Source: Escherichia coli (lineage in GTDB: Bacteria; Pseudomonadota; Gammaproteobacteria; Enterobacterales; Enterobacteriaceae). From it: a stretch of DNA of 758 nt. Where the stretch lies: assembly GCF_003334305.1 (NCBI RefSeq), contig NZ_QOWS01000070.1, one strand, 5' to 3'. Numbering within the stretch: the stretch's first letter is position 1; every line of letters starts with the position of its first letter. Of the stretch, positions 1 through 758 are shown one piece after another. The notes below the pieces were generated by a model, which worked only from the letters and a program-made list of their open reading frames with translations, was not told the origin of the DNA and searched no databases. The translations under genes and the position numbers were made by a program.

Positions 1-758
1 ATCCCGACGGGTGTGATACGGACGGACGACGAGCGGACCCACCACTACCACTACGACAGCCAGCACCGCCTGGTGTTCCACACGCGGATACAGCATGGCG
101 AGCCACTGGTCGAGAGCCGCTACCTCTACGACCCGCTGGGACGGCGAATGGCGAAACGGGTATGGCGGCGGGAGCGTGACCTGACGGGGTGGATGTCGCT
201 GTCGCGTAAACCGGAGGAGACATGGTACGGCTGGGACGGCGACAGGCTGACGACGGTACAGACCGACACCACGCGTATCCAGACGGTATACCAGCCGGGG
301 AGCTTCACGCCGCTCATCCGGGTCGAGACAGAGAACGGCGAGCGGGAGAAAGCGCAGCGCCGCAGCCTGGCGGAGAAGTTACAGCAGGAAGGGAGCGAAG
401 ACGGTCACGGTGTGGTGTTCCCGGCTGAACTGGTGGGGCTGCTGGACAGGCTGGAGGGGGAAATCCGGGCAAACTGCGTGAGCAGTGAAAGCCGCCAGTG
501 GCTTGCGCAGTGCGGGCTGACGGTGGAGCGGCTGGCGGCACAGATAGAGCCGGTTTATTTGCCTGAGCGAAAAATACATCTTTATCACTGTGACCACCGG
601 GGCCTGCCGCTGGCGCTTATCAGTGAAGACGGCAATACGGCGTGGAGCGCGGAATATGATGAATGGGGCAACCAGCTTAATGAGGAGAACCCGCATCACC
701 TGCACCAGCCGTACCGGCTGCCGGGGCAGCAGTATGATAAGGAGTCGGGGCTGTACTA
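1..758 (+). CDS. Rhs-family polymorphic toxin protein, conserved core (YD-repeat) region; internal fragment, partial at both ends (RhsA-D-like; paralogue cannot be assigned from this window)
   Basis: Seen in sequence: frame +1 is open across all 252 complete codons with no stop. The translation contains repeated YD-type motifs ([29 protein letters not shown]) and the characteristic end-of-core block [31 protein letters not shown] followed by [18 protein letters not shown]. From memory this closely matches E. coli RhsA/B/C core sequence just upstream of the core/toxin junction; no database search was possible. Codon usage is strongly GC3-biased (ctg, ccg, cgg, ggc), consistent with a real reading frame. 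The ORF track missed it only because the fragment has no in-window start codon. Confidence 0.93.
46..75 (+). repeat. YD-repeat unit (protein-level) within Rhs core: [10 protein letters not shown]
   Basis: Translated frame +1; matches the Y-x-YD-x-x-x-R-L pattern of Rhs/YD repeats. Confidence 0.6.
121..159 (+). repeat. YD-repeat unit (protein-level): [13 protein letters not shown]
   Basis: Translated frame +1; a near-canonical YD repeat (Y-x-YD-x-x-G-R) as found in Rhs, teneurin and TcC-type proteins. Confidence 0.7.
223..255 (+). repeat. Degenerate YD-like repeat unit (protein-level): [11 protein letters not shown]
   Basis: Translated frame +1; a W-D-G-D-R-L variant of the YD/GR-L repeat pattern, which is commonly degenerate within Rhs cores. 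Confidence 0.5.
583..672 (+). other. Conserved Rhs end-of-core motif block: [30 protein letters not shown]
   Basis: Translated frame +1; the Y-H-x-D-H-x-G-x-P ... W ... YD-x-W-G pattern is the hallmark conserved block near the C-terminal end of Rhs/YD-repeat shells. Confidence 0.8.
706..758 (+). repeat. Final YD-repeat of the core (truncated by window end): [18 protein letters not shown]
   Basis: Translated frame +1; the R-x-P-G-Q-x-YD-x-E-x-G-L-x-Y pattern, which in Rhs proteins immediately precedes the RYYDP...DPxGL core/toxin junction. The window ends inside this unit. Confidence 0.75.

Follow-up and report, generated by a model that had tools for sequence, protein, structure and literature searches.

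Why does the core of an Rhs element stay G+C-rich in hosts of about 50% G+C, if the family to which it belongs is ancient? The question is raised here by a stretch of 758 nucleotides (nt) of Escherichia coli DNA (assembly GCF_003334305.1, contig NZ_QOWS01000070.1), referred to as the window, which comes from within the conserved core of a polymorphic-toxin gene of the Rhs type. The original prediction for this DNA, made from its letters alone, described a GC-rich Rhs core of foreign origin, assembled in modular fashion with an AT-rich toxin tip. We find that most of the G+C excess resides in synonymous codon choice, and that core and tip at this locus have been joined as separate modules. A foreign origin of the core, which is an argument taken from the literature, fits our data without being proven by them.

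Results

The window is an internal part of an Rhs core

The G+C content of the window is 62.7%, and its first 60 nt hold exactly 38 G or C, as in the by-eye estimate that had put the whole at 60% or more. Frame +1 is free of stops across 252 complete codons, and each of the remaining frames contains between 1 and 13 stops. The G+C content at the first, second and third codon positions of frame +1 (GC1, GC2 and GC3) is 0.679, 0.425 and 0.782, with G occupying 50% and C 28% of the third positions, which had indeed been expected to be dominated by these two bases.

We compared the window with 5,426 complete E. coli genomes by Megablast. It recurs at full length and with 100% identity in at least 30 records, and with at least 99% identity in 58; the full-length matching records always overlap a gene annotated as 'RHS element core protein'. 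Matching Rhs cores are present in 3725 of the 5426 genomes, with a median of 3 copies each. In E. coli O103:H2 12009 (NC_013353.1) the window corresponds to nt 2911-3668, or codons 971-1222, of a gene of 1415 codons, whose product is WP_000509150.1 (1415 amino acids, aa). We used this gene, referred to below as the O103 gene, for all further comparisons of the locus.

Profile searches place the window within the core of this protein. The translated window matches positions 966-1217 of the 1261 positions of the NCBIfam profile NF041261 (RHS_core; E=4.8e-161), while the full protein reaches 2667.7 bits, where the curated threshold is 2000, with aa 1-1266 aligned over profile positions 1-1261; the earlier assignment to an enterobacterial Rhs core is thereby borne out. 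YD repeats are recognized in the full protein by TIGR01643 (163.7 bits, 6 stretches) and, in its N-terminal part, by PF05593. Within the window the TIGR01643 match is marginal (E=6.5e-05, 23.3 bits against a cut-off of 15.8 bits, 0 stretches) and the Pfam RHS_repeat matches are non-significant. The N-terminus of the protein carries DUF6531 (E=4e-19), along with a non-significant match to the PAAR motif (E=0.31).

The TIGR03696 domain spans aa 1189-1266 (85.6 bits against a cut-off of 32.5), extending to the core/tip boundary about 130 nt past the window, and the motif PIQVIDPMGL occupies aa 1257-1266, about 100 nt past the window. The form PxxxxDPxGL marks the border of Rhs C-terminal toxin domains in Enterobacteriaceae (PMC3150448). 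Beyond it, the toxin tip has DUF6973 as its sole match (E=5e-12).

Core and tip differ sharply in base composition

Along the O103 gene, G+C content ranges between 0.58 and 0.76, and GC3 between 0.56 and 0.88, over nearly the whole stretch up to nt ~3,750; the one exception is a drop in G+C content to 0.52 at gene nt 3451-3600, in the core. Past the core, the G+C content of the tip drops to 0.39-0.45 and its GC3 to 0.26-0.38. Taken as units, the core (3.8 kb) has a G+C content of 0.634 and a GC3 of 0.761, the tip (450 nt) values of 0.409 and 0.287, and the adjoining ydcD gene values of 0.273 and 0.261. K-12 rhsA and rhsD likewise combine a GC-rich core with an AT-rich tip.

A G+C-rich core with an A+T-rich extension is given as the established definition of an Rhs element; in the Hill-laboratory definition, a core of ~3.7 kb that is markedly richer in G+C than the host is followed by an AT-rich extension within the same open reading frame (ORF) (PMC2935791). 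The O103 gene fits this definition, down to the H-rpt (ISAs1-family) sequence and the small downstream ORF. The GC-rich core has been a textbook feature since the 1990s, and our measurement of it is nothing new in kind.

The G+C excess over the host is largely synonymous

As host baseline we took 186 kb of NC_013353.1 in four blocks, from which the Rhs and ydcD genes had been removed, with 106 long ORFs serving as gene proxies. The bulk G+C content of this sample is 51.2%, close to the 50% that the original prediction had supposed. The 106 ORFs have a mean G+C content of 0.526, a mean GC1 of 0.595 and a mean GC3 of 0.579 (standard deviation 0.092, maximum 0.741). Because the host distribution of GC3 is broad, the window lies only ~2.2 standard deviations above its mean, yet the G+C content and the GC3 of the window both exceed those of all 441 host windows of 252 codons. 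The window is therefore compositionally atypical of its host, and the core exceeds the host while the tip falls below it, which is what had been anticipated; host and window being equal would have spoken otherwise.

The host windows with the highest GC3 (0.73-0.77) come from tssH, the ATPase gene of a type VI secretion system (T6SS) (L001 1144-3909), and from a truncated flhA pseudogene of the Flag-2 (lateral-flagella) system (L001 33402-35141); both are accessory-island genes. Here and below, L001 coordinates refer to the examined stretch of NC_013353.1 that carries the O103 locus.

To separate the contribution of the encoded protein from that of the codons, we re-encoded the 252 residues of the window in 5000 simulations that drew synonymous codons at the frequencies of the host. 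The expectation obtained in this way is a G+C content of 55.5% and a GC3 of 0.575±0.029 (maximum 0.694), as opposed to the observed values of ~62.7-62.8% and 0.782 (z=7.1). Amino-acid composition accounts for ~2.6 points of the 9.9-point G+C excess over host genes, and synonymous choice for the rest, roughly three quarters.

The window favours G-ending codons, unlike E. coli usage. CGG supplies 52% of its arginine codons as against 11% in the host ORFs, GGG 42% of glycine (17%), ACG 69% of threonine (27%) and GAG 69% of glutamate (33%), and ATA encodes 4 of 9 isoleucines (44%; host 7%). Some codons preferred in E. coli are also enriched, namely CTG (69%), CCG (85%), GAC, CAC and TAC, while use of the major codons CGT, GGT and ACC is reduced.

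Modular assembly is visible directly at the O103 locus

The O103 locus aligns over 5 kb to the K-12 rhsE-ydcD-yncO-yncI-ydcC region, with a sharp discontinuity. Up to this point the core, including the window, is 80-98% identical to K-12 rhsE per 100 nt (~92% overall). The last mismatch lies at L001 20772, in codon 1228 and only 14 nt past the end of the window, and is followed by 893 identical nt (L001 20773 to 21665) that take in the core end and the tip and reach into ydcD; the H-rpt regions of the two loci are 99-100% identical. The junction lies ~116 nt before the DPxGL boundary, within the hyperconserved core end. With a near-identical cassette of tip, ydcD (in the immunity position) and H-rpt on cores 8% apart, the two loci give direct evidence of the decoupling of core and tip that Jackson et al. 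2009 proposed as 'C-terminal displacement' (PMC2935791).

The core is itself a mosaic. Relative to rhsD, codons 1-700 (L001 17091-19200) are 22-29% diverged and codons 700-1266 only 2-13%; for the window and the 3' 560 codons the divergence is 2-13% from both rhsD and rhsE and ~21% from rhsA. In the 1998 work of Wang et al., core divergence reportedly amounted to a few percent within subfamilies and 22-29% between them. The 5' part of the O103 core is thus diverged at the level seen between subfamilies, while its 3' part is RhsD/E-like, and the former may be of the RhsG type, which would be expected here from the map position. K-12 rhsD and the rhsE fragment, for their part, are 100% identical over ~840 nt of core (corresponding to L001 19722-20560) and diverge on both sides of it, which indicates recent intragenomic gene conversion.

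The excess recurs in other genera, unevenly

We then asked how general the compositional excess is. One genome per GTDB species was scanned, the query being the aligned segments of the three E. coli subfamilies, and the homologous core segment was compared with the long ORFs in its flanks. GC3 of the core segment exceeds that of the flanks in 16 of 19 loci, by 0.05 on average and by 0.17 in E. coli (Wilcoxon p=0.023). The excess differs even within one genome, being +0.22 and +0.07 at two loci of Citrobacter youngae and +0.14 and +0.02 in Superficieibacter. In the GC-rich hosts Pseudomonas MRCP1333 and Curvibacter, the cores match the GC3 of the host and use its C-ending codons. Across genera the correlation between core GC3 and flank GC3 is weak (Spearman 0.26, p=0.27), and since the flanks are often islands themselves, it neither supports nor refutes a tracking of the host.

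The flavour of the bias is more restricted than the bias itself. An excess of CGG occurs in most enterobacterial cores and not in the GC-rich hosts, and a predominance of G over C at third positions is confined to some enterobacterial cores (O103, rhsD, Yokenella), being absent from rhsA and from the GC-rich hosts; the ratio G3/(G3+C3) is 0.59 in O103 and 0.49 in rhsA. The tips, on the other hand, behave uniformly: in all 18 loci, hosts of 66% G+C included, their GC3 lies below that of the flanks (mean difference -0.37). The tips of Pseudomonas and Curvibacter have a GC3 of ~0.36 where host genes have ~0.8, so that the AT-richness of tips is not just relative to enterobacterial cores.

Rhs fragments of the E. 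coli type, with nt identities to the window of up to 98-100%, also occur on tiny contigs (270-3,534 nt) in metagenome-assembled genomes of Bacillota, Collinsella, Sporosarcina and Nanosynbacter and in assemblies of Jeotgalibacillus and Terrisporobacter. In the latter two assemblies coverage is below 1x. Such foreign-labelled contigs almost certainly reflect contamination or misbinning, not transfer.

Genomic setting of the locus

A complete T6SS cluster ends with the O103 gene, which lies directly 3' of hcp and vgrG. A gene of the ydcD family (YdcD_fam, 215.5 bits) overlaps its 3' end; beyond this come two ISAs1 (H-rpt) pseudogenes, and then yafV, ivy and fadE. The whole T6SS-Rhs island sits in the aspV-yafV interval, which in K-12 measures 2.4 kb and contains neither T6SS nor Rhs genes. 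K-12 nevertheless keeps, beside yafV, 280 nt of ISAs1/H-rpt remnant with 96% identity to O103: its pseudogene yafF (L049 11099-11378) corresponds to the last 280 nt of the O103 remnant (L001 24070-24349). K-12 thus bears the scar of the island without the T6SS-Rhs block. The presence/absence polymorphism at a conserved site, together with the remnants of mobility genes, makes the locus accessory, and may reflect either gain in one lineage or loss in the other.

Organization of the window

The window is a GC-rich Rhs core coding segment over its whole length (1-758, + strand, as are all features that follow), as indicated by the open frame +1, the NF041261 match and the identity to annotated genes. 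Its G+C content is uneven, 65.3% at positions 1-550 as against 55.8% at 551-758. Positions 1-330 (window aa 1-110) correspond to the final YD-repeat strands of the Rhs shell, according to structure alignments and the TIGR01643 match at window aa 7-31. Tandem Repeats Finder reported no repeats in the window, the YD repeats being too degenerate at the DNA level.

Positions 331-528 (window aa 111-176) form a non-YD segment that stays unaligned to solved structures and was delimited by cross-genus alignment. With a G+C content of 65.7% and a GC3 of 0.80 it equals the rest of the core, so that it is not a separately acquired module. The segment is kept across enterobacterial Rhs cores, which hold 78-87 residues in the columns of aa 105-190, where homologues from Pseudomonas, Burkholderia and Curvibacter hold at most 40. 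The Rhs protein of Trabulsiella odontotermitis has an internal duplication of ~34 aa inside this segment.

An AT-richer patch follows at positions 541-600, with a G+C content and a GC3 of 0.45 each. It is also the most divergent stretch relative to K-12 rhsD and rhsE (77-80% identity, 92-98% in the surroundings). It is probably a short imported recombination tract, seemingly from an Rhs copy of lower G+C content. The Pfam RHS domain PF03527 lies at 574-684 (window aa 192-228, E=3.3e-17), and the start of the RHS repeat-associated core domain TIGR03696 at 655-758, where window aa 219-252 match profile positions 1-31. A scan of both strands against Rfam returned the eukaryotic microRNA model mir-1207 at 28 bits, against a gathering score of 90 bits, which is a chance match.

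Discussion

How, then, did the core come by its composition? The reading that we consider probable as a whole is that the high G+C content and GC3 would be a heritable signature of the core lineage, due neither to the encoded protein nor to the host. Following the Hill laboratory, the cores would have evolved in a GC-richer background and reached the Escherichia lineage by horizontal transfer, and would persist there as multi-copy accessory genes whose composition is still short of host equilibrium. The AT-rich tip and its putative immunity gene would form a cassette with a separate history, grafted by homologous recombination inside the hyperconserved core end; at the O103 locus, the graft junction would fall between 14 nt past the window end and the DPxGL motif. 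The GC-rich donor background and the slow amelioration are both inferred. As far as the work of Wang et al. 1998 is cited in PMC2935791, it held that diversification of the cores took place in a GC-rich background and preceded their entry into E. coli.

Polarised substitutions suggest amelioration rather than show it. A loose set gave 28 GC-to-AT as against 10 AT-to-GC changes (p=0.005), a count that includes the AT-rich patch, possibly a single event, and a poorly aligned stretch. Third-position counts over the whole core also lean towards loss of G+C (129 against 75), with an exposure to parsimony bias in base-skewed sequences and to mosaicism.

Several points weigh against an origin of this kind. 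Restricted to well-aligned columns without the AT-rich patch, the polarised test yields 15 against 9 changes (p=0.31). Jackson et al. 2009 (PMC2935791) describe the rhs lineages as ancient and for the most part older than the Enterobacteriaceae, often gained and lost and transferred laterally only on occasion; in a family this old a purely relic signature should have faded, yet the excess is seen in 16 of 19 loci. A donor lineage with matching G3-rich codon usage was not identified, and our host baseline is a 186-kb sample that covers part of the genome. Of the two readings joined in the original prediction, modular assembly is confirmed, by the near-identical cassette on cores ~8% apart, while horizontal acquisition stays an inference from the literature, the decay test being non-significant once cleaned.

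The same observations give some room to the idea that high GC3 is actively maintained in situ, either by GC-biased gene conversion among paralogous cores or by selection on synonymous sites of a long repetitive mRNA or DNA. The recurrence of the excess in many genera, in a family described as ancient (PMC2935791), would be expected under such a force. Intragenomic conversion does occur, as the rhsD/rhsE identity and the mosaic O103 core demonstrate, and the cleaned polarised test gives no significant loss of G+C. We nevertheless hold active maintenance to be rather unlikely. Every polarised count leans towards G+C loss; the excess varies between loci of one genome, which fits differing residence times better than a constant force; the predominance of G over C at third positions differs by subfamily; and GC-biased conversion would leave the enrichment of ATA unexplained.

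The remaining explanations fare worse. A by-product of the amino acids of YD repeats (Arg, Gly, Asp, Glu, His, Trp) would agree with the raised GC1 (0.679 against 0.595 in the host) and with the enrichment of the protein in Arg, Glu, His, Tyr and Trp. The re-encoding test refutes it as the main cause, since composition can account for no more than roughly a quarter of the excess and leaves the GC3 bias wholly unexplained, with 0 of 5000 simulations exceeding 0.694, and we give it very little credence. Even less credible, in our view, is that the gene is strongly expressed and has been selected for translationally preferred codons: the enriched CTG, CCG, GAC, CAC and TAC would suit it, but the codon table refutes it, as the dominant Arg, Gly, Thr, Glu and Ile codons are the less-used synonyms in the 106 host ORFs and CGT, GGT and ACC are depleted. 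Least credible of all, to the point of being negligible, is a constraint from an antisense gene, for although the codon-aligned antisense frame -3 has one stop in 252 codons and holds an antisense ORF of 108 aa, it is without annotation in annotated genomes, and its stops would need the sense codons TTA, CTA and TCA, which the GC3 bias makes scarce (1, 0 and 0 occurrences), so that the open frame is a consequence of the bias and not its cause.

In practice, the G+C contrast helps to locate core/tip junctions and orphan toxin cassettes. As a classical diagnostic of Rhs elements it otherwise matters little beyond correct annotation. The choice between a relic and an actively maintained composition reaches further, since it bears on the persistence of compositional signatures of transfer and on biased gene conversion in bacterial repeat families. 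Active maintenance, if true, would bring the ancient, largely vertical descent described by Jackson et al. 2009 into accord with cores that remain atypical in composition, and would turn Rhs cores into a natural system in which to study biased gene conversion in bacteria.

Comparison with known Rhs systems

The closest relatives of the window among the K-12 genes are rhsD and rhsE, members of the RhsD-E subfamily (Wang, Zhao & Hill 1998, cited in PMC2935791). The window aligns without gaps to rhsD (91.7% nt identity) and to the rhsE fragment (92.0%), with the same G+C content (0.627), a GC3 of 0.75-0.78 and the PxxxxDPxGL boundary in common. The O103 gene differs from them in its position, in the T6SS island of the aspV-yafV interval, whereas the K-12 copies lie at min 11 and min 33. 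K-12 rhsE is moreover a truncated pseudogene, while the O103 gene is intact and linked to vgrG. Its 5' 700 codons are 22-29% diverged from rhsD, and the AT-rich divergent patch at 541-600 of the window is a further difference.

K-12 RhsA, of the RhsA-B-C-F subfamily, is built in a similar way, with a core of G+C content 0.616 and GC3 0.72, a tip of 0.40 and 0.28, and a gapless alignment to the window. Its identity over the window is lower (78.5%), and its third positions use G and C about equally, as opposed to the strong predominance of G in the window.

Solved structures of cocoon-forming T6SS Rhs effectors (8cp6, 7q97, 8qjd) align to the two ends of the window, namely the final YD repeats and the beginning of the Rhs-associated core domain. 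Residues 892-982 of Pseudomonas aeruginosa Tse5 (8cp6) align to window aa 8-110, and the Salmonella bongori protein 8qjd and other T6SS Rhs cores (8qjb, 8qjc) align to window aa 38-109. The similarity to these effectors is distant, and the enterobacterial non-YD segment is ~45 residues longer than that of Tse5 and Pseudomonas.

Finally, the clade II rhs gene SMA1610 of Serratia marcescens resembles the O103 gene in its composition, with a core of 67.7% and a tip of 46.4% G+C and a low-GC trough downstream (PMC2935791). It belongs to another clade and another host and is accompanied by arrays of dissociated tips, whereas the O103 locus carries one tip together with ISAs1 remnants.

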